This document shows positions 4,531 through 63,502 of a stretch of DNA of 64,000 bases, piece by piece (the stretch's first letter is position 1; every line of letters starts with the position of its first letter). The translations under genes and the position numbers were made by a program. The notes beneath the pieces are model-generated. The model searched no databases, was not told the DNA's origin, and was given only the letters and a program-made list of their open reading frames with translations. This DNA comes from Podarcis vaucheri (lineage: Eukaryota), in the NCBI GenBank assembly GCA_965113315.1, contig OZ220370.1. One strand, given 5' to 3'.

Positions 4531-4759
4531 TAGGTTAGAATCATCACATTTTAACTCGTGCAAATGACCACATTATCATTAGTACAAAGCACCTTGTCCC
4601 TGCCACTTTACTCCCACGATGTAAATGAAATGTCTTTCTATATATATCTCTTATTATACACACCAAAAGGCAAATGGTTTGGAGCCATTGCTTGCTCTCC
4701 CCCTCTTTTTCACGATTTTACATTCTACAATGTAATGACTAATTGGCTGAGTTTCCCAA

Positions 4760-5335
4760 GCTATTTTATGTTTCTCTTGCTCTGGTTACAAGTCGTACTA
4801 AACCAGCGTCTCCACAGGGACCTATAGACGGCCAACAATTCCAAACGCTATATAGCATTCCCCTTTGCTTCTAATGCGTAAAACATTTACGAGTAATTTT
4901 GCAAATGCATTAAGAAGGACCACCTCCCCAGGAGCCCCCCCCGTCTTCTGTCGGGCACTAACCCCTCACCTCTCACACACTGCCGGCGACCCAGTCCTTC
5001 CTGCCTGCTCCTCTCCCTGCCGGCCCCCCCCCCCCGCGCGCTCCTTCACCAGTTAGCAGCACAACTTTCTGTTTGTGCCAGTGGGGCGGCCTGGCGAGAC
5101 CACAATTGCTCTACTCCACAGATTGACGAGCCCTCAGATGCCGATTTACTGTACATGGCAGCCACTCTGGAGCCGAGGCACATCTGGAGTGGAGTAAGCT
5201 TACCGAGAAACAGGGGCCAGCTTTAACTGGAGCCAGTGGAACTGAGAGCAGCCGATGAAAGGCAGCTTTCCCGCCTTCCCCTTCCCCGCAGTCCCTGGGT
5301 AGATTTCCTAATGTAAACAGAGTCGATGGGGGGAA
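4760..5335. promoter_or_regulatory. CpG-retaining GC-rich island
   Basis: Local excess of CpG against a CpG-poor background, with a C-run and CGCGCG at about 5020-5041 and GGGGCGG at about 5083. Confidence 0.5.
5204..5307 (-). ncRNA. Candidate exon of a minus-strand spliced transcript
   Basis: Acceptor ...GTGTTCTTCCCCCCATCGACTCTGTTTACATTAG| and donor TCG|GTAAGC; 104 nt. Confidence 0.4.
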
Positions 5336-5468
5336 GAACACAGTAACTCTTTGCAGAATGTTTGTTGTTTAATGTGCTTTATCTACTTGAGGTCAAAATA
5401 GTGCCTTAGAAAAACAGAAGCTTTGCTTTTCATCTAAATAGCTAAAAGCCTGCGTATTACTATAGTGG

Positions 5469-5470
5469 TT

Positions 5471-5518
<48 letters not shown>

Positions 5519-5553
5519 TCCTTCCTTCCTTCCTTCCTTCCTTCCTTCCTTCC
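5469..5553 (+). repeat. Compound microsatellite (TTTC)n-(CCTT)n
   Basis: Directly visible tandem array; an 85-bp pure pyrimidine tract. Confidence 0.98.
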
Positions 5554-6560
5554 AAGAGGTTAGAGTGGGAAAAAGTGGCACTTTGGTGTTTATTTGTTCC
5601 TTTTTTATTATCATTTAGGGGCATAATTTCATTATCCCGAACCAAATGAAAAACAAACGATTTGTCTCTGCTAAAGTTCTCAGTTCCTCTTTTTAATGTA
5701 TAGGAAGATGCTTTAATCCACAAGAAGGGTACATATCTGTTTATTGTATGTACCATTTAAACAGTAAAAATCTAAAAGAACAAAAAGATCCGCCAAACTC
5801 ATCTGTTCTGATTTTTAAAAAATAAATCCCTCCAACCCGCCATTTATATTATCTGAAAACAGAATAAAAAGATTATAGATGGAAGCTTTGTTTTACTGAA
5901 CGGCAAATAACTTGTGCATCCTGGTGCCAACTGGAACTCGGGGGATTCTTAATTTCTTTTCTACATCCAGAGGATATGGTTGTTTTAATCTGGATGGACC
6001 GATTTCCTAACTGAATCTTTGAGTTATTTATTTGCTAACAATATATGAGGTTTTTAATAGCAGAATGAGAAGTTTGCATGGAATGAGAAGCTGACATCTT
6101 ATTTCATAGTTAATTAAAGGGGAAGGCATATAAATGAAACAGAGGAGCTGTGGGTAGAAGGGAGAAATTGTGATAGGGGTTTCATATTACACTTCATAAT
6201 CACTAAAATGAAATGGGTTGAATTTTTAAAACACTCAGCGGGCCTTTCAATTTTAATCCTACCATATTAAAGATAATGATACAACATAAGTTTAGTCGGA
6301 ACATGATTAGCCTGGTGTTGAGAGCTGGAGGATATAGCATATTGACTGCAGTATGGAGCCCCACACAACAAATCTGAGACTCACACAGCCATTCAGAAAT
6401 CTTGTTTTTCCAATGTACCTGTTTCCTTTGCTCGCCTTTCAAATCCCATCTAAGGTTTCTCAAATGCAAAAGGGTGTATTAAAAGTGTTATTTGGACCAC
6501 AACTTGCTAAAGGTTTCTGAGCATTGCTGCCTGTCTCTGGTGAAATGTCATTTTAAATCA

Positions 6561-11235: not shown

Positions 11236-11730
11236 TGTAGAGGGATATGAATAATAGGTTAAACAGGCCACAACTTTATTGAGGGAACATGAAATGCATG
11301 TATCAATTAAGACGAGGAGATGGTTCTTGCCCCTTCTGAAGAGTTGCCTAGGAGGACTAGCATGGATGGATGGCCAACTCACTGTCTCCCTTGCGTCACT
11401 GAGCAGAACTCTGAGCTTCACTGATGAGATGTAACCAGAGGCATAGCATGGGGGGCTTTCAATACTGTTGAGACTATATTGCATGGAACCCTCTACAGAA
11501 GATGCATACAAGGGGGCATGAAGATTGTCCCTCATAATAGTTTATTTGCACCTGGAAAACTCGAATCCCTGATATGGCACATTTGCTTGTTGTGGCCTTG
11601 CACAGAAGCACATGAAGCCAGAAAGAATCAGGCAGGATACTAACAAATAGACCCCCCAAGGGAATTGAAAAGGTCTAGACTTCAGTTTGCAGTGAAGCTC
11701 CTTGCCCCATGCATATATGGCTGATTTCTT
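11236..11730 (-). mobile_element. Degenerate solo LTR candidate
   Basis: The reverse strand has CAATAAAGTTGTGGCC (signal at 11275-11280), identical to 42401-42416, and ends ...CTACA followed by ATAT. The upstream boundary is uncertain. Confidence 0.45.
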
Positions 11731-12089: not shown

Positions 12090-12160
12090 AATAATAGAAT
12101 TAGAGAATTGGAAGGGAACAAAAATGCCATTTAATTCAGCCTCCTGCAATGCAGGAATCA
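12090..12160 (-). mobile_element. CR1 LINE extreme 3' end
   Basis: The reverse complement GATTCCTGCATTGCAGGAGGCTGAATTAAATGG...TCCCTTCCAATTCTCTAATTCTAT matches a CR1 terminus. Confidence 0.65.
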
Positions 12161-14212: not shown

Positions 14213-14344
14213 NNNNNNNNNNNNNNNNNNNNNNNNNNNNNNNNNNNNNNNNNNNNNNNNNNNNNNNNNNNNNNNNNNNNNNNNNNNNNNNNNNNNNNNN
14301 NNNNNNNNNNNNNNNNNNNNNNNNNNNNNNNNNNNNNNNNNNNN
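14213..14344. other. Assembly gap (132 N)
   Basis: Run of N, followed by GA-rich sequence. Confidence 1.
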
Positions 14345-14595: not shown

Positions 14596-15188
14596 GTAAG
14601 TTCAAACCGCAACCGCAACTCAAGGCAATCTTTCTCAAAACCAGATCATATGATACAGTTCCTACTCATTTTTACCAGCAGTAAAATCTGCCACCCAGAG
14701 AGCTCATATTTGTGCGCTTTCCATGGGGGGGGGGGATGGCTTCCTCATCCTGCCTTCTAATAAAATATGGGACACTTTGGGGGGTTCTCTTCATCACCAA
14801 TCCCTCCTGGCAGTGATTCCCTTGAAAACGTTGGTTGTGTTTGCTCCAATAAAGCCAGGCCTTCATGCAGGCACCCAGTTCAGGTTCTGCCTGATGAAGA
14901 ATTAGCCAGGCAGGTAGCTTGCCAAACATGAATCTGATTAAGTCGAGACTCAGAGAGAAGGAAGTTTTAAAAAGAACATAGGCATTGTAAATTGTACAAG
15001 CAACTTTGTTCTTCCTAAGTCTGAGTAATTTTACCATGGCAAGTACAGATGCCAGCATGTTGCTTCATTTCTCACAGTTTGTACATTTAGTGGAAAAAAA
15101 GGCTGCCAGATGAGACGATCTTACAGTAACTCCTGTATGAGTAAAGGGAAGTTAGGCAGAGCTCTTGCTTCTCTATCAGAACTTAAGG

Positions 15189-15324
15189 CAGTCTTTCTCA
15201 ACTTAGGGTGCCCAGATGTTGTAGGGCTACAACTCCCACCATCCTTAGCTAGCAGGACCAGTTGTTTGGGATGATGGGAGTTGTAGTCCAACAACATTTG
15301 AAGACCCCAGGTTGAGAAAGACTG
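15189..15324. mobile_element. Non-autonomous hAT (Charlie-like) MITE
   Basis: Perfect 14-bp TIR CAGTCTTTCTCAAC/GTTGAGAAAGACTG, 8-bp TSD ACTTAAGG/ACTTAAGA, and internal palindrome CTACAACTCCCA...TGGGAGTTGTAG. Confidence 0.9.
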
Positions 15325-16414
15325 ACTTAAGAGTTCTTTTTCTGCTATAGTCTCTGGGGGGCTATACCACTTGCTTTTTCTGAATTTGAAGTTTTGCCCT
15401 CAGTTGCAAACAAGTAGTTTGTAGAAACTGTTGCTTGGATTCACACTGATATGAAATGTAGTAAATAGGTTGTTGTTACATGTAGTTTTGTTTTAATGAG
15501 GGGTTAACCGTTAAATTAGTTTTGCTACTGGTTGTTGACATGGAAATTGTGATAATATGCACAGTATCACATTGCTTACATAAAACTTGTTATTTATAAA
15601 GTATGAGTACAAAATAGGGTGGACTATTTTGCTATGGATTGAAATGCATTTTGCTGTTTAGAAAATATGCTAGGTTGCAACTCTTCTGTTTCTATCACAT
15701 CGTATGGGTATTATTCTTACGGAATTCCTATCTGATATTTGTTGCTGTGTTGGTCCAAGAGAACACAACAGGCAGACTAAGTGAGGCTTGTCTTATTGAC
15801 TGAACCCTTTGGGAGAGAAAGAGTGGATTTCAAAAACATGTGCACCCCACCCCCTTCAATACGAAGGGGCTTGAAAGGAGTGCAAATGGGAGAAGAGTTT
15901 AATTTGGCCTTCTTTGAAGTAGCTTTATGACTAAACGTTTCTTTGGTAATGCAAGTTACACAGACCCTTGGCATTGGGGTGGATTTTGCCCATAAGAAAG
16001 AGGATATGAGGGAGCTTGATAACTGAGAACTGGATCCTGTGAAGTGCTGAGCACAATATTTCAATCGTGAAAGCCCATAATTTTAAGGAATGTGTGTAGT
16101 GCTCAGTGGGACGACTTCCAAGGTGCCAGTTAATCATGTGTTCTGTTGGCGCAGATTCCTTTACAGAATAAGGTTTCAACTGCAGGGACCTCTGTTGTGG
16201 GCAAATAAAAAAATAGAAGGCTCCATTGCTGTTAATCTGCTATCTCTACCAACAGTTTGATATCTATAGAGTCTCCCTCCATTAGTAGAAATATGTTTCG
16301 TCAGTTACTCACTGGTTTTGTTTTGTTTTTGCCTGAAAAAGTATCATGTCAGGGTTGTTTGCTGGTGCTATTTTAAAATCTCACTATGGCAGCCAACTCG
16401 GGACTGCCTGCATC

Positions 16415-21050: not shown

Positions 21051-22707
21051 TTTCTTTACTAGAGTTGCATTAAGTAATACAGATTTTACAATCGGGTTCC
21101 CAACTTTTTATTCCAAAACTGATGACCCATGGAATGAGTCAGGGTTGCAGACTCTTGTTAGGCCAGGAGTTGAAGATAACAGCAAATATTTTCTGCTAAA
21201 CTCCTGGGGATTATGCTGGCTGGCATGGTGGGCTGAGCTTTGGTCCTAACAAGGAAGTACACTAAGAACAATCCCATAGCTGCCACCGCTATGTTTGGCT
21301 GACAACACCTCTTGTCCTTCACTTCATGGGCTACCAGAAGTTAGCATTTGTAGAAAATGGGTTGAAGCAGTCTAAAAAAAATCCTCTGCAAATGATGGCA
21401 GTTACATACAGCCTTTCCTTCCTGCAGAACAGAAGTTTGGACCTAGTATATTTCTAATATATTATATACCCTGAGAGACAGCAACAAATTGGCATTTCTC
21501 AAAGCAGGGCTACCCTGGCTTCTATTAATAGTTTATGTTCCATTTTATTCAGCACAGACACAACTTGTATGATAGTCAATGTTTTAAAAAGCTTATTCAA
21601 TTTCATTGCTGGAGTGTGTTTCTATAATCAAGTCATGTGTACCCTAGCATTACAGGGACAACTTCTGCCTGCCATACCCAGTTTTGTGTTCTTGGAATTT
21701 CTTTCAGGAATGGCTCTATGCAATTGTTTCAGCTTTCATTACACCAATAAAGCATTTTAATGACTTTTGAATATCCACCAAAAATGGTTGGGGTTTAAAA
21801 GAAAGTAGAGTCTTGACTCTGAAAAGTATTTGGAAGGAGAGAAGTGGAATGTGTATAGAGTTTGCTCCATTGCCCTTTCAAATTCCAATTGCTCACGAAG
21901 CACTTGTTCAGTGTCTGGTTAACAACCACCAGAATAATAGAATCGTTTTTTGGTTGGCATCTATCTGTCTCGAGAGACAATGGAGTGCTCTTCCAGGGGC
22001 AAAGTCAAACCACTGGAGAATCACAGCACCTACTTAGAAAATTTAAGCTGCAATTAATATATATGGGGTTAGCAACTGTGGTAGAATTTGATTTTTTATT
22101 TATTTTAAAGAATCATTTCTCAGTTTTCGTTGCCCCTCCATATTACTTCCCTAAATGTTGGTGCCTGCCTGTGCCCCCTTCTAGTAGCTCAGCCTCAGAG
22201 TAGAATATATTTCCCAAAGTTAATGTTCTATCACACATGCCTTAAGAGTCTCCTGTGTATTACCAGCCCCTGTGCTAATATATTAGTGATTGTCTGCTTG
22301 GAAAAAAAAATAAAAGCACAAATGTCAGGCTGGCATATGAGAAAAATAAATCATGAAGAATTTCTGGTGGGCTTCTCTTTTTTCTTTTTTGCATGAATGT
22401 TGCATTCCTGGTTCAGGAGACAGAGCATGTTTCCTGACCACTAAAGCACCTTTTCCGCTTCATGTAAGTCAACACTTCAGCTGTGTGTGCAATGCCAAAA
22501 AGACTGAAATCAGCCCCTCAGGAAAGAAAAAAAAAATCAGTTTTAGTACTTCACAGGGACTCTGGAGTATAGATAACCTATGCATCATCAAGTTACATAC
22601 GATTTTGTTTTCAGTGCTACCCAACTTATTGCCTTGGGCACTTACGGGTAATTATTATTTTTTTATTTCCCATGGCAGCCCCTGCACTGGCATTCCATGT
22701 TATAGAG

Positions 22708-22834
22708 CAGATGTGGGGAGTCTGTTGCCCTTCGGGTGTCCTTGGATTCCATCTCCCATCAGCCCCAGACAGCATGCCTAGTGGTCAGGGATGATGGGAA
22801 TTGATGATCTGGAGGGCTGCAGGTTCCCTGTTCC
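22708..22834. mobile_element. Degenerate hAT-type MITE related to 15189-15324
   Basis: CTCCCATCA...TGATGGGA palindrome with CAG..GGGGA / TTCCC..CCT ends. Further relatives lie at 26535-26627, 39922-40023 and 48400-48508. Confidence 0.6.
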
Positions 22835-25800
22835 TTTTTGGAAAACACCCCACAAGTTAAAATTGTGTCCCAAGAGAAGGACTAGAAGGGAAGAAATTCA
22901 AATTTATGAAGCCACAAGTTACTTATATTCTGGTTACGAACATGGAATATATTAGTGTCTGAAGAAGAACTTGCTCTTTCATAACCCAACTTCTCCTTGG
23001 CTTGAACTTATAGTGAAGTCATGTAGTATTTATGACACAGAAGATGTTTCCAGAAAAAAAAAATGTTATCACAAATCCACTGGGGTCAGAGGAAAGTACT
23101 TTAACTAAAATAGAAACCACAGCGAACTTTTGCCTAAATAGTAAGCTCTCTTGAAAGCAAATGCACCATCTTAAATTCAATATACATATACCTCCTTTTT
23201 CGTGATGGTGGTCTTCTTTAACTATCCTGTCCAAAATCCCCCAGTCACTTGTTTTGCTTCCAAAACAATTCAGTTTTTAAGATTGAAACCTTTAGGCATT
23301 AAGAGATGCCTCAGACAAGAGAAAGTCTGAAAGCAGTTTGAGTAGTTTGATATTAATGACAAATAATGCAAATAATTAACAACGCTAATGAAATTGAAAT
23401 CAGGGACACACTGGGGAGTTTAAGGGTGGTGACTTCTCTGAGAATGGAAGTTTCTCTGTGAGCTTTGCGCACACCCTACAGTGTAGGCGTGTGGGAAAGG
23501 TTACACTGAACTTGCCCTTTCGTAAGAATCACTTTAGAGCAAATAGCAGTTCCAACATGAGAAAACAATTCTGTGGCACAAGAAGCCGAAGTCTGATTCA
23601 AGGGCTCATTAAATCTGTTCTTTGCATTTCTTTCTCCATATATTATGGCTTTGATAATATTTATGGTTTTAAGAACTTTATTGGCTGTGGTGTTCACTTT
23701 AATCAAACTATCACACGCATCATGAAGCAATGGCTTTGCTTTGTATCCTACACCAAGGTATTAGGCTTTTGTAGCACAATCTACCCTGGTCCTCAGAAAT
23801 TGCACTTGCTCTTTAATCACCCTTTCGCCTTCCCCTGGTATTAATTGCAGGCCAAATGTGAAGAAGCAAATCTGTTCCCTATTTAAAAAAAAGTCTGTGC
23901 ATCATTACATCGATCTCTTGTCTGAAAATGCTGTGACGTGAAAATGTGGACAGGCTAATCAGCACTTCAGAATGGTTGGCACTTATTGATAAAAAACCAG
24001 GTTGTGCCCTTAAATGTTTTTCACCTTTCTTAGGGGGCACTGAATGTATCTTATGAATGCACTTGTGCTTTCCCATGTACCACAACATCAGGGCAAGCAC
24101 CTTGCCTGCTTCCATTGAAGAGAAGGGTGGCAGCCATGGCTTTGCCTATTCATGTGTCAGAGTCTGATCAGTGATCTCTTTCATAGCCTATTCAAGGATA
24201 GGTTGGCTGAGTTTGTCCAGGCTGTGTGATGAGACTGTTTTGAAAGACTACGTTGTTCAAGACTGATGCTCTGCCTCTCCACTGCTGTAGGAACTTAGCA
24301 TGACATCCCAACAGCCCTACAAGTGAGGCAGTGTGAGAGTAGTTGAGTGCCAGTTCTGGGGTCAAGCAGGGATCATTTCCCCCCTTGATCCATATTAAAC
24401 GGAAGATAATAGTCTTCTGCCTACTGTCTCTGCAGCTTCTACAGGTTCTAGAACCAGAGATGGTTGACTGGACTTAGGTAGAGGTAAGGCTTTGGGATAT
24501 TTGGCAGAGTTGCAAATATAAATAGTTGCCAATACAGGTTTGGGTTAAGGCACAGTTTAAAAGGCTACAAGGACGAGCAGCTCAAGACATTGTGCTGGTG
24601 AGGGAACTTTCTCATCACCTCCAAAGAGCTTGTGGGAAGATGGGCTGGTAATTCCTCATGAGGTTACTGTCACAGCGGCTCACAGCATTCCAGCTTATGG
24701 ATAATGATATTTGCTGGTCTCCCTCAGAATACCTTCTATGTATGTAAACTGGGAAAAGTGGAGATATCAAGTCTGGATGAGGGTCACCTAGAGAGGTTAT
24801 TGGAAAAGGCCAACACATGCTTTCCTCCTTGAATTAAGAAGGTGTAACTGTTAATCCTGAAAGGCTGAAGGTTGCAGGAAAATACATAGGAACTGTTAGG
24901 CATGCTGCATATCCTTTGTATGTAATAAAGTTGTGACCTTACTTTATTCCACCTGCTCTTCATATAGGGACAATGCTTGGAATTCCTTTTGACCAAAATG
25001 AGCACTGGATGCTATAACGAGGTGGGTGATTTGCCCACAAGCCCCTGTTTCACTATGGTAGACCAAGCAGCTATGCCAAGAATCTGACTCATACTTTCCA
25101 AAACTGATGAAAAGGAAAGATAACATATATGTAACTGAGGCAATATTGACACCACTATTTCTTTAGTAAACACCTTATGAAAGATTCAAAAAGGAGAAAC
25201 ATCCTTTGAGCTTTATGAATGAAATGTGGTCATGGGATCCCATTAAGTAGGAAACTGTGGCACAATTTCTTTATTTTTTTAAAAAATACTGCCATTTTGG
25301 AAATTTTCTTTATAAGTTTCAATTACTTACATATTGATTGAATGGAGATCAATAGTATTTCCCCATCTCCCTGAAGCCTACTGTCATTCATTTTCTTTTT
25401 AGAGTACAGATGACGACGAGTTTAGGTGTGTCCAATTGGTGCATGGCCACTGACATGTGGGTCCTTTTGAACCTGGAAGAGGGAAGAATGGGGTGGGATG
25501 GGGTGTAACGGAGCAGGGCAAGCTTATGCCTGCTCCGCCAACACGTGCTTTGACCCAGAACACAACCCCCATGGAAACAGGGAGTTGCCTGTACTGCACA
25601 TGACCCTGGTGAGTGGTTCTTATTCTTTGATTCTATCTTGATGATCAGACTTTTCATGCTGTGCACAAGTGATCAACATCTATAGGTGACCAAGCTGTTC
25701 CGCTATTCCTAGTAATTTGTTATGATGAGTGCTGGCTCAGAGTATTTACTGAGACTAGCCATATTCATGTGAACTATCTATGTCTCCTAGAATAAATTGA

Positions 25801-29003: not shown

Positions 29004-29821
29004 CACTGCAGCATTCTGACTAGGGAGGTTCAAATTCAAATGAAACATGGTAGTTCAATAAAGAGGCATTTTTTAAAATAACACGCTTTGAATAATTGTA
29101 AAGAATCAAGTGGTAAAGAGGCATGTTTTGCTGAGCTCTGAAAACGCTGTTGAAGTTAATTTTGAGATTAGATATCAGTAATGGTGTTTGAAACATAATC
29201 CTATATTTTAATCCCCTCCCCAAAAAAGCCAAATGTGACTAACTGGGAAATAATACATTTCTCAGACCTCCCTGTGCATGCTGATGTAACAACACATTTC
29301 AGGGAAAATGAGAGAGTGGGAGATGGAGGGAAGATGAGAAACCTTCCTTCCAGCCATCCTCACTACTGCTTGTTTGTATCCAAAGTTGAAATTTATGAGT
29401 GTCAGCACCATCTCTAAATATTTAATAAGCCCCTAATAACACCAGAACTTCAGCTAGCATAAGCTGATGGATTTGAATTATTTTTGCTGAGCAATATTCA
29501 GAAATAAACAGATACTAATAGGCTTTTTACGTTATTCACTGAATGACATAAATAACTTCACTGAGTTGAAGTTGCTTTCAGTTACCTCTTCTCTCTTCCC
29601 AGTTTTCTTCTGTAAGCTGCTCCATAAGTTCTGAGGATCAGTCTTAAGAGCAGGCCAGAACAGCGCTTTGTCTGCAGTTCAGCCAATTCCTGAAGTTCCC
29701 ATATAGGGGAGATTTCATCCACCACTTATTCCCTACTCATCCATATGGCTGATAGAAATGACTACCACATCATATTTTCAGCTGTGAGGGCCAAACTACA
29801 CATTACACATAAAAATGTATA

Positions 29822-30063
29822 CAGTGGTACCTCGGGTTACATACGCTTCAGGTTACATACGCTTCAGGTTACAGACTCCGCTAACCCAGAAATAGTACCT
29901 CGGGTTAAGAACTTTGCTTCAGGATGAGAACAGAAATCGTGCTCCGGCAGTGTGGCAGCAGCAGGAGGCCCCATTAGTTAAAGTGGTGCTTCAGGTTAAG
30001 AACAGTTTCAGGTTAAGAACAGACCTCCATAACGAATTAAGTACTTAACCCGAGGTACCACTG
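29822..30063 (+). mobile_element. Tc1/mariner (pogo/Tigger-like) MITE, 242 bp
   Basis: Perfect 18-bp TIR CAGTGGTACCTCGGGTTA; TA on the left, TG on the right; internal TTCAGGTTA subrepeats; second copy at 40703. Confidence 0.92.
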
Positions 30064-30118
30064 TGATTGTAGCGGAAAAACCCACTTCAGGACGGAGCAA
30101 TGCTGTGTACATGCTATG

Positions 30119-30262
30119 AAGCACATTTGAAATGCAATTTTCACCTCAAAGAATTCTGGGTGCTGTAGTTTGTTAAGGGTTGCTGGGAATTGTAACACTG
30201 TGAGGGGTAAACCACAATCCCCAGAATTCTTTGAGGAAAATAATGTGCTTTGAATGTGCTTT
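30119..30262. mobile_element. Palindromic MITE-like repeat
   Basis: AAGCACATTTGAAA..CCTCAAAGAATTCTGGG pairs with CCCAGAATTCTTTGAGG..TTTGAATGTGCTT. Confidence 0.7.
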
Positions 30263-33200
30263 AAAGGTATACTGTGTATGCTTCCTCAGTCGAAGGAAGA
30301 ATGAGATGTCTTACCTGTTCTTCACCTTCTACTTCCCTAGTTCAAATGGTCTCCTCAAATGGCATTTCCTCTGTGATGTTCCAAACATGGGCTTCTTTAA
30401 AAGAACAAAGGAAAACTCACTTTCTGGGGAAACAGAGGCTGGGAGAAAGAAGTTCCCTTCTCCCAGCTGCTTCTCCAATCCCAATTACGCCCCCCCCCCA
30501 AGTGTTGTGTTTATTTAAAGTATAAAAATACAGCAACGGACTTAGGTTGCTGTATATAGCATTACAGGCAGAACAAAGTTGAAGAGGGAGTCGCATTGTG
30601 TGTCCACTAATTCAGTTTGGTGGCATCTTGCCAGCTATGTCCTGCCACCACATCTTCTCCTCCACAGACAGAAGAACAGATGAGACGTGTTCTGCATGAA
30701 GCAACACAATAAACCTGCCAATTTGGCATGGCGCTTCTTACGTTATTATATTTGACTTGCGGTTGGGAATGGAAGAAACTAAACTCCTGTAATTTAAACC
30801 TGAGTAGGACATTGTGCGCTCTTTCAAATGTTGCATAGCTCTTAGAAGATTTCAGCGGCTGCACACCATTATGGAAAGCGATGTAAGGCAAAAAGAGAAA
30901 AATGCTTTGAGTACTGCCTTTAAGTCATGATCAGAATCCTTCGGAGCATCTCTGAAATGTCACCACCAGCAGAATACTGAGACCTATAGTTTCATACAGA
31001 TAAGAAAGCCTATACTATGGAGGGAACAGGGGTAGCAGCAAACGGCTTAAACAGAACAGACGGAGGTAAAACTGTAACAAAAATGTTTTTGCACTGTTGT
31101 AATGATAAAGCCTTCTTGGCTTAGGAAAAAATGTAAAAGAGGTCCTCAGAGTGATTTGAATTGTGCACTCCTGACCTAGGACACCAAGAGGGAAAGACAC
31201 CCTTTACCCATTTCCCATTTGCCAATACAGCGCCTGTAAAACATCAGGGAGGAATTGAGCTGAGACTGGCTAAGGACAGTGGGCTGAATCTGACCAAGTG
31301 TTGTAACAAAAGCAAATGTTTTCCTCTAACTGTGAGGTCAGATTTTTAGCACAATTGCAATGATTAAGTGATACTTTGGGGGTAGTTAAGGTTGAGAAAA
31401 AAGAAAGGGGAAAAAAAGATAAACCATGCCCCCAAAGCTAATAAAAAGAACAGAATTCTGAAGGAACTCAACCTGGGGAATCATAATTACTTGACATTTT
31501 CACTGAAAACCAAGCAGCATATTAACAACTGGGAGCATGTTTACTGAGAACCAAATGCATTGTGAAATATTCTCAACTAGCAATCTATCCCAGGTATTTT
31601 TGCTGGATGAAACCATTGGATTTGTGTGCCATTTTTAGAGGTCTCCAGTGCACCAATGTTAATAGAGTTTTGTTGTACTTCTGGTTTAATTTGTTCTGGA
31701 CTTTATTAGCTTCCCCTTAACACATATGCTGTATTAATCTCTACTTATAAATGGCACTCAGGGCATTTATAGTGGACATTCTAGATGTACTGGGGAAAGG
31801 CACAGGGAGCAGGATAAATAACATATAAAACAAATTCCAAAAGCTTGTCTACTTTCAAGCTATAATTCCATAAAAGCAAACTTTGTCAAAGAAAATACAA
31901 GTATCTCACATGTGGTTATGGCTTAGGGATGCTGCTATGTAACAATATATCAGGATATTATTAAATATGCCTGTCTAGAAGATCTGGAAGCCTCTCTATC
32001 ACTCAGACCTCCCAAATTGTACAGAAAACCCAGTGATAATGCAAAGCAAAAACTACAAATATTTTGGCTTTAAAATTGCATTGGTTTCTTAATAGGTAAA
32101 ATATTTTCTGCACATCTTCCTTGGCCTTGATACTCTGTCCCTGGGAGATAGATGTCAGCTTTACTGATAGCAGATATATTTTCTTATTTTGATCATTAAT
32201 TTCCTTTTTTGCTGTGTACCAAGGTTACAGAATGATGTAGTGCAGAGATTCGCTACCGCTATCAGCTTCTGGAAAATAGGGTTACCTGTACCCAGGTGTA
32301 CCTATTGTTGACACTGTTGCACCATATGTGATTTTTTTTCAGCCTAAGTCACAGAGACGATCTGACATATGTCACTTATTTAGATAAGAGATATATAATC
32401 CATGTGGCTCATTGATCCATCAGGAGTATGAATCCCCAGGGCTCCTCCTTTGTGCAATTGCACAGTAGTGGAAACAGCAGCTCTTTCATGACCAATGACG
32501 GACCCCTATGACACCATGATATGGCAGTACTTTGTTCCTCCCCAACAAGCCTACAGCTGCATAAAGTTCTTTTAGTGTCAACAAACAGCCTCATTGTGTT
32601 CCTTTTCTTTTCCTATCCTCTGTCATACAAAACCACAAGATGGTTTAGAGCATTCAACTAAAGGACCCCCTCAAAAAAAACACACCCTGGTAGGATACTA
32701 ACAAGATTACTGTCCAGCTTTAAACACACTCGGTACCAGCTTATCATCAGCCATTAAAATATTTGCCAAGTTGGATAAGAAGCTCTTGCTTTTTGGAAAA
32801 TGTTTGACCATGGCAGAAGTCCAAGGGCGAAAAGTTCCACTGTTAGTTGCCATCTTGTGCAGATAAAATAGTCAAGCTGTCTTGGTTCATTATAATGATC
32901 CCTATCTAACATAGTCATAGAAGCAGTCTCGTTGACAAGTAGGGTATGATATATTTCTGCTTATTTACACTATGTGTAATTTAGATCCCACTGATATCAG
33001 TTGGGCAATTAGTCATTCTTTAACTTAATTCTACTAAGTTCTACTAACTTAGTCTGGACCTAACCCTCTGTTCTGAAATTCTTTTTGATGTAAGCCACCG
33101 TATCTCACGTAGGGGATTCTGCCTGCCTCTCCTCAAGGAGATCTAAGGTACCTTGCACAATTATGTGCCCAAGGAATAAATAATCTGTTTTATGCTATGA

Positions 33201-37539: not shown

Positions 37540-38077
37540 TCCCCCTCTCCCCCCTTTTAGGGAAGACAGACTAAAGGATTCTGCCCAAGGCCTAAAACCG
37601 CCATAGTTGCGACAATTGCTACGGGGAAGGCAAAATTCCTTCCCGGTTCTTTAACAGCAACCATCATAAGACTGTAGCAATGCCCTCTGACCTGGAAGGA
37701 AAAAAAGGTTAACCTGTAATCAAAGCATTAAACAGAGAGAGGGTTGGGTGGGTGACGCTCCGAAGCCAACTGCATGCTCCCAGGTTGGCTCCACCCCTCT
37801 CTTTATACCCCTAAAGTGGACTGGAGTGAAGCCTGCTCACTCTCGGTCTGCTTGGTTGGCCCTGCCTCCCCCATCACCATGGGTTGGCTCATTTGAACTG
37901 GGGTATGTGGGAACCCCAATGGCTGTGATGCGGGAAGGCGGGCCAGCGTGACCATCCAGTGAGTCTCCAGCGGATTGGGGGTGCTGCGCGTGGCCCCGCA
38001 AAGGGCGCCCACCAACAGATAGGTGAGCGATCATTATTGGTGGAGTGGGGTGAAAGGCTCAGGATGATGATGTCACA
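37540..38077 (-). mobile_element. 3'-truncated solo LTR related to 49860-50536
   Basis: The reverse strand starts TGTGACA and has TATAAAG (37801-37807). Its segment ATGGTTGCTGTTAAAGAACCGGGAAGGAATTTTGCCTTCCCCGTAGCAATTGTCGCAACTATGGCG is homologous to 50000-50099. Confidence 0.7.
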
Positions 38078-39440: not shown

Positions 39441-40113
39441 GAAGCACGTTCAGGGAATGTGATGATCACTGTTCTTGTTCTCTTCTGATTATCGTGTAAA
39501 GTCTCATATTGTGGACAATGCACCCCATGAACTGAACTTCAGGGAAGAAATGAAATTCTCCCTTTCATACAAGACCTAGAAGCATGGGAGGAAAATGTTT
39601 GACTCCCTTTAGAAAAGACGACAATGCTATCTTGATGAAAACCACCAAGCTGCTGTAAAAGATTTAAATAATGATTTTAAAGCAGTACATACACTTACAC
39701 ATTCAGAGGCCACCTTTGCTTGTTTAAACATGCTTTTTGCTATTATTAGCATAATATACATAAACAAAACCTGAGAAACCACTGTGAATATCATTCAAAT
39801 TACTGCCAACTTTCCTTTTGCCAGAGAAAGTGATCTTGGAGAAAGGTGACTTTGAGAAGTGACCTGGGGGTACAGGGCAGTGAGGTAAAGTTTCACCCCA
39901 TGACTCCTGAAGGAGGGATGAGAACCTTCAGATGATGGACATCCATCATGGCTGACCACTGGCTGCGGCTGATGGGAGTTGTAGTTTAACAACAACTGAA
40001 GGGCCACTGGTTCCCCATCCCTGAACTAAAGGGTCTGCTGACAAGTTGTGTCACCATGGGTACATGGGACCAGATATCCCTGCTTCTTCTTAGTAAATAT
40101 GAAGAGCCAAACC

Positions 40114-40330: not shown

Positions 40331-40702
40331 TGCTTTTAGAATGCGGAAGACCTACTTGGTCCTTTTTAGGAGTGCATAAATATATTCTTATGAATATATA
40401 CATTCACTGGATTCCTGAAGAGTTTCTCCTAAACATTTCCAACAAGTCAATGAATAGCCGTGTGAAGTTGAGTAGACTGGAAGTTTGCAGGTCTAGACCT
40501 GGGGTTCTATTTGGTCACCAGAAGGTTATCCCACAGACCTCACCAAGATTATCACATTAAAAAGATGCCTACTTAATATATGCTGAAACACAGTGTACCA
40601 GGTAACTAGATGTCTTTTAAGTCTTTGTAATGTGCATATATTGATCCAAGAGGAAACATGAATTTATTTTTAAAAAATATTGTTATATGGTTTCCCATTC
40701 TA

Positions 40703-40944
40703 CAGTGGTACCTCGGGTTAAGTACTTAATTCGTTCCGGAGGTCCGTTCTTAACCTGAAGTTGATCTTAACCTGAAGCACCACTTTAGCTAATGGGGCGT
40801 CCTGCTGCCGCTGCGCCCCCGGAGAACAATTTCTGTTCTCATCCTGAAGCAAATTTCTTAACCCGAGGTACCATTTCTGGGTTAGCGGAGTCCGTAACCT
40901 GAAGTTTCTGTAACCTGAAGCGTATGTAACCCAAGGTACCACTG
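40703..40944 (-). mobile_element. Tc1/mariner MITE, 242 bp, inverted relative to the 29822 copy
   Basis: TIR CAGTGGTACCT(C/T)GGGTTA with TA on both flanks. Confidence 0.93.
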
Positions 40945-41942
40945 TATTATTTCAGGTCTACATAAACACATTTTTATAAATAAATAACCTTCCTGAAATC
41001 ATTTTTTTCTCGTTACTGTTTCTCTTAAAATAGCCCCACTATTCAAGCATCCTGAAATCACAGACATAAAACTCCATTGAATTAATGTAACGCTGACAGA
41101 ACCTGACACACAGCCTGGAAATTCAAAGCTGTGGTTGGCATCCCCTTCTGAACTCAAGCCACTGTGCCTTTTATTTTCCACAGGAGCATTATTGCAGCTT
41201 TAAGTGTGGCTTTCCTGGTTATTATTATTTTCATTTTCATCTGCATGTGTTTTCTGCCTTTATGTTATTTAAAACTGGGCTTCTGTTCTGGACATCTACC
41301 ACAAAAGAGAATCCATTGAAGTCTGACTCAGTGTTTATATTGATAAAGCCGGTGTATAGATCAAGAAGCAAGACTAATATTGATCCAAACTAGGCCAAAT
41401 CTTTCTAGATGGAAGGAAATCAAGGTAATTTGTTGTGCCGACATATAACACCAGTCAAAACCTTGAACACTATGTTCTGAGAAGCACAAGAAAGACATTT
41501 CCCACATCATTATTTAGTATCCACTTCTACAAATGCAAACAATTTGGAAAGTTCAGCTAGGCATACCTTGGGTTCCATTCCAATATGCCCAGGTTATTGT
41601 TGTTGTTTTTTAGCTCTGAATTCTACATTGAATCTACCACTGAATCTCAGTAAACACAAGGCAAAATTAAGACCATCGTTCCCAATATGAATGCCATTAG
41701 CTTTCATCTCTGCTATACAAAATTACCATGCTTCTTAGCAGCTAACAGATGAAGTACCAATACAATTCCTGAGCAGGTTCACATAGATTATTTTCAAGGC
41801 CTCTTCTAGGTCAGAAAATCTGACAGTTCTGAAGTCTGATAGCCACAATTATTCCATAGTTATTCCTTTGAATACGCCTCGCTGTTTCAAATTGAGACTT
41901 TTCTAATGATTAATCAGGTCCTCCCTTAAAGAGGGCACATAT

Positions 41943-42499
41943 TGCAGTGAGACCTGGACAACCGACACCCTGTGTTGTGGGTGGGTACAATTGGTTAGCC
42001 ACAACACCCGATTGGTAGGTCCCTCGAAGCTGGGTACCATCTGGCCAATGGGACGCAGTCTAAACGGTTCGAGGGACCTATTTATGCCCATGCACGTGAC
42101 CCAGAGCTTCCTCTTTCGGCACGTGCATTCAGAACACCTGCCCACCTCTCCCTACCTTTAGGGCTTGTTGCACTTGACCTTGCTATGCCGTCGTGTCTCA
42201 CCTGTCATTGGGACAGGGGCAGGGCAGGAATTTTCCCTCCTTGGCTGATTGGCTGTTGCCATTTGGGCTTCACCCGCTCTCGCCATCCCTATGTGAAGGG
42301 TATTCCGTTAAAGGAATCTAGGGACTTGGTGGTTTGGTCAACCCCTGAGAGTTGAACCAGAGTTGAACCAGAGCCTATGCAACCAGTCACTTTCTGTAAT
42401 CAATAAAGTTGTGGCCTAAATTCTGCCAAAAACCAAACCAAAGTTTTGAATCAAGTGTGAATTTATTTAGGGGGGAAGGTTTCTGGGTCTGAACACGCA
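41943..42499 (+). mobile_element. Solo LTR (probably Gypsy-type), 557 bp
   Basis: TG...CA ends with ATAT/ATAA flanks, CCAAT boxes, TATA-like CTATTTAT at about 42078, CACGTG boxes, AATAAA at 42402-42407, and retained CpGs. Confidence 0.75.
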
Positions 42500-48337: not shown

Positions 48338-49859
48338 GTCAACATGCACGTGTGCACGCACACACACAGCTTTTCTTGTCTTTCTTGGATAATATGATTG
48401 GATAGCCAATGTAGTGCTTTCCTGATTTCATTGGACTATAATGCCCATCAGCCGTGGTCAACATGGTCAACACTCAGTGCTGATAGGAGTTGTAGTCCAA
48501 TAACATGGACTTTTGTACTTTCTAAATGTTCTGATGCAGTTCTCAGCTCAATGTATACACAAATACACAGTGCAGTGCATTTAAAAGTGAGTAATATTTT
48601 GAGAAGAAAATATATATAGACATGCCCATTTAAATACATATAGACATACACATTTAAATGTGAATTTTCATATTTCTTTTTAAAAGTAGGTCAAAGCAGA
48701 AATGAGACAGAATGTCATTTTGTGAGTACACATGCCAAAATAACAGATTAATAGGCCTATCCCTAGATCCAGACTGATATAGTCAGTCATATAGTCAATA
48801 CTGAAATAATTGTACAGAAATCATAAACAATGATTTTAGCAAATGCAGCTTGGGGAGGGGGCTAGATGTTTACACTTCTCAAAGGACCAACTGCTGTTTG
48901 CCAAGGTGCACTGTGGAGAGGGTGTGTGGCTTTGATGGAACCAGTGTTCAGATGCCAAGCTTCAGCAATGATCTTTTTTTTTTTTTTACAATCAACTCCT
49001 AAATATAAAGGTTGATAATGAAGTTTTCACAGGATTCTTAACTCCAATGATGTCTTGATAATATTTATACTTATATTGTGATCTTTCTAAGTGTATATGA
49101 ATATTTCTTACTTGTCTTTTTCTGTTTCTGTTCTAATGGGGCCCTTGATATTTGCAAAAAGATGGGTTTTCTTCTGGCTACCAAATCTGATCAATCTGTT
49201 ACTGTTCTGTTAAAACAGCTCTTGAGCCTTCTCTCCCCCTCACATCCAAAATAACCCTCACTGCATTTGATGCAGTACAAGTTCTTTACAATGCAAAAAA
49301 ACCGTTCTTTTTTCATCTTCTTGAAATTAGCAACATTGTGTACTTACTGTTTTTAGGGGGGGGGGTAAACCCTTTAAAAAGCAAATTTAAGCCTTAAAGG
49401 CAGCTTGTGGCAGCTGCCCTTACAGGTTTTGACAATTTAGTCCACTCCAAATAAACAGAGGAAAAGAAGAAACGTGTTTATTTAAGAACACTTGCTACAC
49501 CAACAGCTTGTGTCAACCTGCTGATGAAAGTTCCCAAGGAAAGTGATTGCATAATTGTGATGGGGGTTGACAGGGACTTCCTAGCCTTCCATTAAAGTCT
49601 CAAAGCATGGTGGCTCTACTAGCAGAACATGCTTACACTCATGCAAGATGGTCTCAAACATGCCTGGGACCATTTATCATTTTGACAGATATTGTCAATA
49701 GCCTGTGCAGGCCACTTGAAGGCATATGGAGTGAAACTTGGGGTTTTTTTTAATGTGATATGATGGATTGGGCATATAATGTCCTCATTGTCTGAAATAT
49801 TTACCATGAAGGATTTCTTTTTCTTTTTCTTTGCAATGAAGCCTCATAGTTCAAGGCAG

Positions 49860-50536
49860 GTTGGCACTGTGAACTTACTTATACATATAGGCAGTGGCCA
49901 TTTTTGGAGCATCCGATATGTGCATGACCACGTGTTTGTAGGGTTTTTCAATGGGTGTTCCTAGGGCACTGTGTTTATTGGCTTTACTGTGGTTTGGTAA
50001 TGGTTGCTGTTTTCGGAGTCGGGAAGGAATTTGCCTGAAAACAGATTGGCCCTGTTTGCAGGTTTTGCTTTCCCCATAGCAATAGTCACAGCTCTGGCGA
50101 ATTGGGTGGAATACTTCTACTTTAACATCAGGCGGCAGGGGGTGGGGTGGGTGTGGGTGAAGTGGTTCATCCCCCCTCCTCTGAACAGTGTGCTAACAGG
50201 GTACGCCATTAGAGGGGTCTCACTGGAATTCTCTGCCCCAAAGCCAAGGTGTACGGCAGATGGGCCATAGAGCTTCCTTCAGAGGCTTGGATGGGTCATC
50301 TGTGTAGACCTGTGTCTTGCAGAGGAGCCATTAATCCTGGGGTTAACCCTGTCATGTGATAGTGCTCCACCAGCAGGGCTGTGAGAGGTATATACCCAAT
50401 GCTTAAGCCAAGTCCAACCAACATCTGGAATCAATAAAGTTGTGGCTAATTTTAATCCCAGAACATTGTCTTGTCCAGTTTGTTCTCCTTCACAGGCCTT
50501 GCTTCTGAGGGAGCGGACACTGAGAATGGGTCTGCA
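49860..50536 (+). mobile_element. Solo LTR with ENE-like hairpin
   Basis: AATCAATAAAGTTGTGGC (signal at 50433-50438) shared with 42398-42415, and homology to the 37.6-kb copy. Boundaries are approximate. Confidence 0.65.
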
Positions 50537-50855
50537 ATGGGCCCAAGTCCTCATCCACCATCAAATACTACCCCCTCCACCTCTCAACCCTGGAAGGCTC
50601 CAGTTACTGAAGGTACTGTATGCTTTCACTGGGTGGAGTGGAGTTATAAAACTACTTCAGTAACTCCCAATCACAGATTCTTATCATAAACAGTATTGAA
50701 CAACCCTGACAAATAACCAATGTCAATATTAGTAGTAACTAGAAATAGGCACAGACAGATATGATAGCAGATGCAAAACAAACACTAACCTCGCTCCAGT
50801 GGTGTCCCCAAAGATATTTCATTATTCATGCACTTAAAAATCTTCTGTTTCCACC

Positions 50856-50880
50856 AAACTAAACTAAACTAAACTAAACT
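50856..50880 (+). repeat. (AAACT)5 microsatellite
   Basis: Visible tandem repeat. Confidence 0.95.
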
Positions 50881-51599
50881 GAAATCTCATTTATTTAGTA
50901 AAGATGATGCATATTGAGCTACCTGTTTAGTTATAAATATCAATCTCTCAGTTATCAGTTGTATCATGATATAGAATGGTTTTTCAGAAAATGTTAGCAT
51001 ATAGAATGCTCTGACATTTGGCCATTAATTTCTGACATGCCATTATAAATTGGTTATAGTTTCTCTCAGTCGTTCTCTCTTTTATACATTTGTATTATCT
51101 CTGGATTGCTATTGTATGTTTTCCCATTAAAGCCAAATACAGTATGTGGGAGTGAAGGATTTGGCAGCGAGTGGTCCAGTCCAGCCGTGGTCACCTGAAG
51201 GCACTTGAGATGTTAGCTTCCTCCTCTAGAGACACACTAGAACTTGATTTCTTGGCTTGCTTTTGTGTTTTTGTGCGCACACGAAGTGTGTGTGCATGTG
51301 TGCACCTTAGCACGTTTAGGACACAAAAGCATTTCCAGATGAATGGATAATGTCCAAATGTTTGCTTTTTGACAGTTAGCATTGAAAACAAGGATTTTGT
51401 CACGGTCAGTCTCCTTTAATTATTTGCACCAAAAAGCTACAACAGCATTTGCTTTCCAACAAATCACAACTTTGTGATAACCAGTGGACCAGTGGAGCCT
51501 GAGCATACCAAGGTTCATCATTCTAGCACCTTTGTGAAATGCATAGGGTGAATCTTTGGATATTTCCCACCCTTTCAGGATTGCTGTGCAGCTGTTTTT

Positions 51600-59890: not shown

Positions 59891-60115
59891 AGAATAATAG
59901 AATTCTAGAGTTGGAAGGAATGCTGAGGGTCATTTTGTCCAATCCTCTGCAATGCATGACAGGAGACCATCTAACCTCTGGTTCAAAGCCTTCCTAATGT
60001 TCAGTTGACATCTCCTTTCTTGTTACTTGAATCCATTGGTTCAGGCCCTACATTCTGGAGCAGGAGAAAACAAGCTTGCTCCATCTTCCACGTGACAGCC
60101 CTTTAGATATTTGAA
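59891..60115 (-). mobile_element. CR1 LINE 3' fragment with internal deletions
   Basis: The reverse strand reads TTCAAATATCTAAAGGGCTGTCACGTGGAAGATGGAGCAAGCTTGTTTTCT (FKYLKGCHVEDGASLFS, CR1 ORF2 end) ... CCTTCCAACTCTAGAATTCTAT. Confidence 0.85.
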
Positions 60116-63054: not shown

Positions 63055-63502
63055 CAGGGGCAAAGGAAGACTAACTGTCCCCTGGTGTGGGGTGTCGGGG
63101 GTGGGTCAAACCGTCTGGTGCCACATGCGTGTGCGCCGCATGTACGGCTCATGCTCATGCGCCGTATGTAGCAGTGGCGTGCATGTGCTGCTGGATGGTT
63201 TGCTGACAGCGCTGGGATCTTCTGTTCATGGCTGCAGCAGCGGCAGAAGGATCGTCTGCATAGCTGTCAACTGTCTCCCCTTTTTTAAAGGGAAATACCC
63301 TTATTTCAAATAGGTTTCCTCGCAAGAAAAGGGAAAAGTTGACAGCTATGATCCTCTGCATGTAGCTGCGCGGCGCATTGGTGGCTGCTTGTGCCACCAC
63401 ACCTGGGGTCGGCAGGGCAATCCTCCCATGGGATGCCTACTTGTCACCCCCCTCAGAGATGGCACCTGGGGCAAAGCGCCCCCACCCCTTCCTCCGCCAC
63501 TG
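63055..63502. mobile_element. hAT (Tip100-like) non-autonomous element
   Basis: TIRs CAGGGGCAAAGGAAG / CTTCCTCCGCCACTG with 8-bp TSD TCTAGGGG/TTTAGGGG; CpG-rich. Confidence 0.8.
63259..63350. mobile_element. 92-bp MITE nested inside the 63055 element
   Basis: Perfect 13-bp TIR CATAGCTGTCAAC/GTTGACAGCTATG with 8-bp TSD ATCGTCTG/ATCCTCTG. Confidence 0.88.

Follow-up and report, generated by a model that had tools for sequence, protein, structure and literature searches.

An ENE-like hairpin in a lizard retroelement repeat and its bird homologues: a candidate poly(A)-clamping element

Known ENEs and the hairpin of Podarcis vaucheri

ENEs are built from a U-rich internal loop between short stems; the poly(A) tail is bound as U.A-U triples, and A-minor contacts are made on the neighbouring G-C pairs (PMC7583470, PMC13541005, PMC4378190). 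The ENE of KSHV PAN holds five U.A-U triples (PMC7583470). The ENE of the Arabidopsis element Evade requires the U's as well as the G-C pairs that flank them (PMC12501189). ENEs embedded in LTRs have also been described (PMC13541005), and a blunt-ended MALAT1/MENbeta ENE construct is printed in PMC6633196. Transposon ENEs are known almost wholly from plants and fungi. In a review they are attributed to plants, fungi, slime mould and the retroviruses of stickleback, the last being the only vertebrate case given there. The literature search brought up no description of ENEs in transposons of reptiles or birds, and tables of the primary ENE surveys, which lay outside its scope, could list such cases; no match to the letters of the motif was found in it either. 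Tycowski 2016 is said to cover transposable-element ENEs of plants, fungi, slime mould and stickleback retroviruses, and the MALAT1-like loci of Zhang 2017 reportedly include lizard members.

The window analysed here is a stretch of 64,000 nucleotides of DNA from P. vaucheri. The hairpin at 50021-50074 shares with the KSHV PAN element the order of stem, U-rich loop on both strands and stem, the G-C pairs adjoining the loop, and the position 5' of a poly(A) signal. It differs in that about three triples would be possible in the family of the window, and four to six in the bird copies described below, as against five in KSHV PAN. In addition, its 5' loop opens with two A and its 3' loop closes with a G. 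The likeness to transposon ENEs would lie in the place within a putative retroelement 3' region or terminal repeat. Most plant transposon ENEs, however, are double-domain elements, whereas a single U loop is present here and the hosts are amniote repeats. A double-domain ENE was considered and rejected, as one U loop was obtained in every fold.

By eye, the hairpin shares with the construct in PMC6633196 the purine-rich lower arm, the CCUG/CAGG start of the upper stem and a 3' loop ending in G. MALAT1 has far longer loops, which pair with an encoded A-rich tract, and a tRNA-like element follows. No run of at least four A occurs in 50075-50600. ARAGORN, which could miss mascRNA-like folds, predicted 0 tRNA genes, and Rfam gave no tRNA-like element. 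With neither an encoded A tract nor a tRNA-like element, membership of the MALAT1 type is excluded.

The hairpin, its host repeat and the paralogues

The features of the host repeat are as follows.

49868..50494, +, host repeat of about 627 bp; solo LTR, or lone terminal repeat from a different class of retroelement, without a coding relic
50003..50083, +, predicted outer 8-bp stem around the hairpin (50003-50010 with 50076-50083); prediction, not in the centroid fold
50021..50027, +, lower stem, 5' arm, purine-rich, with G-C pairs adjoining the loop; predicted fold, same arm in bird copies (six letters preset by the search pattern in the a-type, none in the b-type)
50028..50033, +, internal loop, 5' side: two A, three U and one G, which pairs with U50063; predicted fold
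50034..50044, +, upper stem, 5' arm, with a mismatch of the window copy at 50038; fold, paralogues and bird copies
50045..50051, +, apical 7-nt loop with ATTGG (reverse CCAAT) at 50045, common to the bird a-type and absent from the b-type
50052..50062, +, upper stem, 3' arm, containing the variable position 50053; fold and paralogues
50063..50067, +, internal loop, 3' side: four U and one G; predicted fold
50068..50074, +, lower stem, 3' arm, with a G.U wobble of the window copy at 50069; fold and paralogues
50389..50394, +, TATA-like box, from sequence only; another TATA-like stretch begins at 49880
50433..50438, +, AATAAA poly(A) signal within the most widely shared block of the family; its start lies 359 nt 3' of the hairpin

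The preliminary description had read the letters and coordinates of 50021-50074 correctly. Its architecture of stem, U-rich loop and stem agrees with the minimum free energy fold, which consists of a 7-bp lower stem, a U-rich internal loop, an upper stem with one mismatch (50038) and an apical stem-loop. The fold adds a predicted G50033-U50063 pair that leaves three U on each side of the internal loop. Its energy is -22.8 kcal/mol (z -3.64; 1 of 200 shuffles equally good), compared with -17.0 kcal/mol (z -1.99) for the antisense strand. Within the whole 627-nt repeat, the mean predicted pair probabilities are 0.80 for the lower stem, 1.0 for the upper stem and 0.91 for the apical stem. With flanks of about 35-40 nt, z is only -0.31 and 68 of 200 shuffles fold as well. 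Among 14,172 sampled 54-nt windows, 33 fold equally well. A descriptor written post hoc for the hairpin has this one site in the window and also matches in 4 of 30 resampled windows. Taken by itself, the hairpin is thus barely beyond chance, and it is its relatives, the paralogues and the bird copies, that make it more than a chance fold. On their evidence, 50021-50074 is very probably a conserved RNA hairpin. Rfam contains no gathering-level match in the window; 49000-51500 gave just five weak unrelated matches and the bird loci three.

The host repeat ends in TG...CA with a 6-bp inverted repeat (49868, 50494), a pair picked from the many TG/CA pairs tried. Read as target-site duplications, its flanks match at 2 of 4, 3 of 5 or 2 of 6 positions. 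The insertion is old, since one contig of another organism (X8 record 9) carries it with both flanks (15 differences and 2 gaps over 1080 bp). By mapping of public contigs and reads, the stretch is present in 20 DNA-type runs from five organisms. The label of solo LTR given earlier has the TG...CA termini and the inverted repeat in its favour but is a putative one, with 3 of 5 flank positions matching and a paralogue depth that stops short of the left end. The carrier may be a solo LTR or the solo split-repeat unit of a Ngaro-like element, which it resembles. Full-length elements of the latter type would carry tyrosine-recombinase or SGNH coding sequence next to the repeat. In Ngaro-type elements, the split direct repeats are arranged as A1...B1 A2 B2 (PMC9210276).

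Depending on which TATA-like stretch is used, that at 49880 included, the hairpin could be located in U3 or in a long R. The 123 reading frames around five relics gave no Pfam match at cut-off, and no reverse transcriptase, integrase, recombinase or SGNH domain. No longer protein was found for the reading frame that runs through the hairpin; its two matches among 1.84 billion protein representatives are a paralogue read-through and a repeat artefact. The solo copy in the window is probably inert. Two RNA runs of another species, of which about 12% and 6% of the reads were searched, yielded 7 and 2 reads, none of them at least 95% alike. In these few reads, the mate orientation on the hairpin is opposite to that on the poly(A) block.

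Public contigs and reads were placed on 49600-50800 at a likeness of at least 80%, giving a depth that is not a copy number. Over the hairpin block, 50010-50091, depth reaches 4577-5727 (X1) and 4833-5349 (X8), and it is 77-475 next to the hairpin (50092-50173) and 71-214 in the flanks of the repeat. Other blocks are found at 49887-49927 (about 1000), at 50215-50337 (980-2700) and on the poly(A)-signal block (up to 80,000). After the poly(A)-signal block, the hairpin block is clearly the one shared most widely. Paralogue depth begins near 49887, short of the left end, and most loose ends fall at 50446-50460. Among the 15 joints listed of 33, seven connect the hairpin block to downstream blocks, all as same-strand skips. 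Among the listed joints, the hairpin therefore retains its orientation and its position with respect to the poly(A)-signal block. The distance to AATAAA, about 360 nt in the earlier description, was measured as 359 nt.

Position 50038 forms a Watson-Crick pair in 83-88% of the paralogue depth (28-42 contigs), and so does 50069 in 80-85% (30 contigs). Position 50053 is different in 50-65% of the depth, with no partner change among the 40 variant rows listed of 153. The same 40 rows include no loop position. There are four indel rows among the paralogues of at least 80% likeness and none is in the hairpin, so that no loop insertion is listed. An unnamed paralogue peptide stays in frame through both loops and would place two mismatches in the apical stem. 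The short U tracts had been taken for a sign of decay in this copy. This view is not supported: no loop indel is listed and the peptide keeps both loop lengths, so that the short tracts look like a family trait. From the sequences, the decay of the window copy looks to be placed in the stems, with the apex looser than the core.

Related hairpins in a bird repeat and in the window

A two-arm pattern with 23 fixed letters recovered 13 metagenome loci, five of which are members of a single repeat family, with a likeness of 74-95% over 0.25-1.7 kb. The other eight are unrelated, two of them being one sequence, and were used as controls. The family is read as avian because of the reverse-transcriptase-type fragment that neighbours it in L008: among the best 120 relatives of this fragment, L008 being the locus examined, every named one is from stork or crane. 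The unit of the repeat, seen in L008, L009, L011 and L016 (e.g., L009:700-1500, minus strand), measures at least 1.7 kb. It includes an internal tandem array of units of about 175 nt, each with a hairpin copy in a differing state of decay. No consistent open frame was found on either strand, and a search with the bird frame returned 15 unnamed peptides showing further copies. One peptide of the family, P0135, reads as a shortened apex with both arms retained, on peptide evidence only.

Five a-type and four b-type hairpins were distinguished, with one or two clear copies per locus. U counts on the 5' and 3' loop sides are 3 and 4 in the window, 4 and 6 in the bird a-type, and 7-8 and 5-6 in three of the four b-type copies. 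The b-type has one more G-C pair than the a-type. In tandem pairs of a and b units, 21-24 of 24 positions match in the stems beside the loop and 9-12 of 23 in the apex, and the flanks are 67-71% identical. The four loci all show the same single duplication, and the stems, being homopolymer runs without CpG, would mutate slowly in any case. The five a-type copies show no compensatory change among themselves. Six cells break pairs and the rest make a wobble, as in neutral decay. The antisense strand of the a-type folds about equally well. The next AATAAA is located 779-1185 nt from the bird copies, or is absent from the available sequence.

Of the letters outside the pattern, the window copy and the bird a-type share 4-5 of the 6 upstream ones and 10-12 of the 13 apical ones. 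In 10 control loci, from which L013 was excluded as a duplicate, the same letters agree at 0-3 of 6 and 6-8 of 13. Built from the five a-type copies, a structural model gives the window hairpin 44.2 bits (E 1.6e-8), the top score in the window. A sequence-only bird model gives it 16.8 bits, so about 27 bits come from structure. With the structural model, 35 pattern-matching control loci, 11 of which carry both arms, reach at most 27.2 bits. Pattern matches elsewhere (0, 1 and 23 loci in viral sequences; 3, 23 and 0 in genome contigs) are chance-like; they lack the fold of the motif, and their scores are nil or no higher than 27.2 bits.

Because MAFFT misaligned the arms, an anchor table and the model-fitted alignment served for counting the pairs. 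In the fitted alignment, six stem pairs are changed on both sides and still pair, compared with 2.0 in shuffles, none of 500 being as high. Three of these pairs do not depend on the fit. The covariation is one lineage comparison, because six of the seven double-change cells come from the row of the window. Judged from their sequences, the window and bird hairpins are homologous, and the ENE-like architecture is conserved between the lineages with compensatory changes in the stems. The split between lizards and birds dates to roughly 280 million years ago.

Further relics of the family have been recognized in the window.

37599..37664, -, second relic, without the upper stem; lower stem (37644-37638 with 37630-37624) and flanks as in the copy at 50021; 24.9 bits with the bird model
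42222..42285, +, third relic, more diverged: 5' arm, U tract and apical motif retained, 3' half unfolded; E 0.047
24335..24441, +, possible far older copy with bird-type flanks, weak; E about 0.003, poly(A)-signal block then at 24924

The fold has been lost in two of the relics of the window. In the 37.6-kb relic, the outer 8-bp stem is predicted as well, and the upper stem may have been lost by a deletion that joined two short direct repeats. The same relic has, at 37690-37810 (-), a TATA box followed by a polypyrimidine tract and an AG, resembling a splice acceptor about 45 nt before the hairpin. The 42.2-kb relic is followed, at 42402, by the same poly(A)-signal block. This block is common to four diverged repeats of the window: 11267-11282 (-), 24924-24935 (+), 42393-42415 (+) and 50424-50446 (+). 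Its depth of about 15 times that of the hairpin block, together with its presence in four diverged repeats, implies that many families end alike.

Possible functions and other repeats of the window

There is about an even chance that the hairpin acts as a compact poly(A)-clamping ENE. Active elements would transcribe it on the + strand, near their 3' end, and it would fold in vivo. The U-rich loop of the transcript would then capture the poly(A) tail as U.A-U triples, around three in the family of the window and four to six in the bird copies, with A-minor contacts on the G-C lower stem. Capture of the tail would slow deadenylation and stabilise the retroelement RNA. The predicted fold has a U-rich internal loop on both strands between two stems, as do the bird copies. 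G-C pairs are present at both loop-closing stems in all 10 copies tabulated. The structure is kept by covariation and the apex is variable, a pattern that rests on two evolutionary comparisons, and AATAAA follows 359 nt downstream, collinear with the hairpin in the paralogues. With the core fixed, the apex free, U opposite U and the position 5' of AATAAA, an ENE fits the pattern of conservation best. In the modelled pairing, the family of the window permits only about three U triples, which speaks against an ENE. Further points against it are the missing near poly(A) signal of the bird copies, the almost equal antisense fold of the a-type, covariation that comes from a single lineage comparison, the variation at 50053, the few RNA reads of opposite orientation and the two relics in which the fold is lost. 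The ENE-type element proposed in the preliminary description gains from the architecture conserved in paralogues and in the bird repeat, from the compensatory changes and from conservation on the loop-flanking stems; what falls away is the appeal to U-tract decay.

The main rival is a conserved RNA hairpin with another task in the retroelement, either as a protein site (for packaging, export or recognition by the reverse transcriptase) or in dimerisation, the U loop being a protein or distortion site. Such a role would explain the conservation of the stems and the covariation equally well. It would also suit the apical 13 nt, near-identical in the window and the bird a-type, which an ENE would not need, as well as U tracts that are short here and open with two conserved A, and bird copies with no near poly(A) signal. 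The apex, however, is least conserved between bird a and b, where the U loop and the G-C stems persist; the U tracts are longer in the b-type, and P0135, as far as a peptide can tell, has shortened its apex and kept both arms. The other-task reading is possible, if on the whole unlikely.

An element acting at the level of DNA is improbable. Promoter sites might be represented by the reverse CCAAT in the apex (ATTGG at 50045) and by the 5' arm, which resembles an NF-kB site, and TATA-like boxes are present in the same repeat. Alternatively, a hairpin or recombinase site could form in single-stranded cDNA. The inner arms are an 11-bp inverted repeat with a 7-nt spacer, the geometry of tyrosine-recombinase sites. 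The letters of the arms, however, differ between the lineages while pairing is kept, unlike in a double-stranded binding site; T faces T in the loop, and U opposite U on both strands is not expected from an inverted DNA repeat. The CCAAT motif is lost in the b-type. Less probable still is a fold that is due to chance, in a decayed repeat whose structure is not under selection. The matches in resampled windows, the loss of significance when flanks are added and the dozens of chance matches yielded by pattern scans of bacterial and viral contigs would be accounted for in this way. The conservation peak, the better pairing in paralogues, the bird homology at unselected positions and the 27 bits gained via structure all argue against chance.

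If the hairpin is a poly(A)-clamping ENE, such clamping would extend to mobile elements of amniotes, over a span of roughly 280 million years. The natural variants with 3, 4 and 5-6 possible triples might then show how small a triplex can be and still protect a tail. Copies dispersed in 3' UTRs or lncRNAs could be an overlooked source of stability elements for host RNAs. A tentative and rather doubtful extension is an ancient family of compact ENEs with three to four triples, older than the lizard-bird split, which would serve as a portable module of unrelated amniote retroelements: the terminal repeats described here, the tandem bird repeat and, possibly, the 3' UTRs of turtle and frog CR1 LINEs. 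The letters of the motif are missing from the searchable supplements of PMC4316615 (an alignment without the boundary of ORF2 and UTR), PMC8665684, PMC5786205 and PMC11303007. Should the hairpin not be an ENE, it would still represent a retroelement RNA structure that is deeply conserved and has no Rfam family.

Other repeats are scattered along the window, which is interrupted by an assembly gap of 132 N at 14213-14344. A decayed CR1-like ORF2 end is found at 59891-60115 (-; tblastn E 0.04 with a bird fragment), and a related sequence at 12090-12156. Several families of short, palindromic, non-autonomous elements are represented at 15182-15331, 22703-22803, 30114-30266, 39954-40028 and 63259-63350. 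At 29819-30064 and 40701-40947, a 246-bp element is present twice, in opposite orientations and with 91% likeness between the copies; it has terminal inverted repeats, contains tandem repeats of 16-17 bp and looks like a MITE of the Tc1/mariner type.
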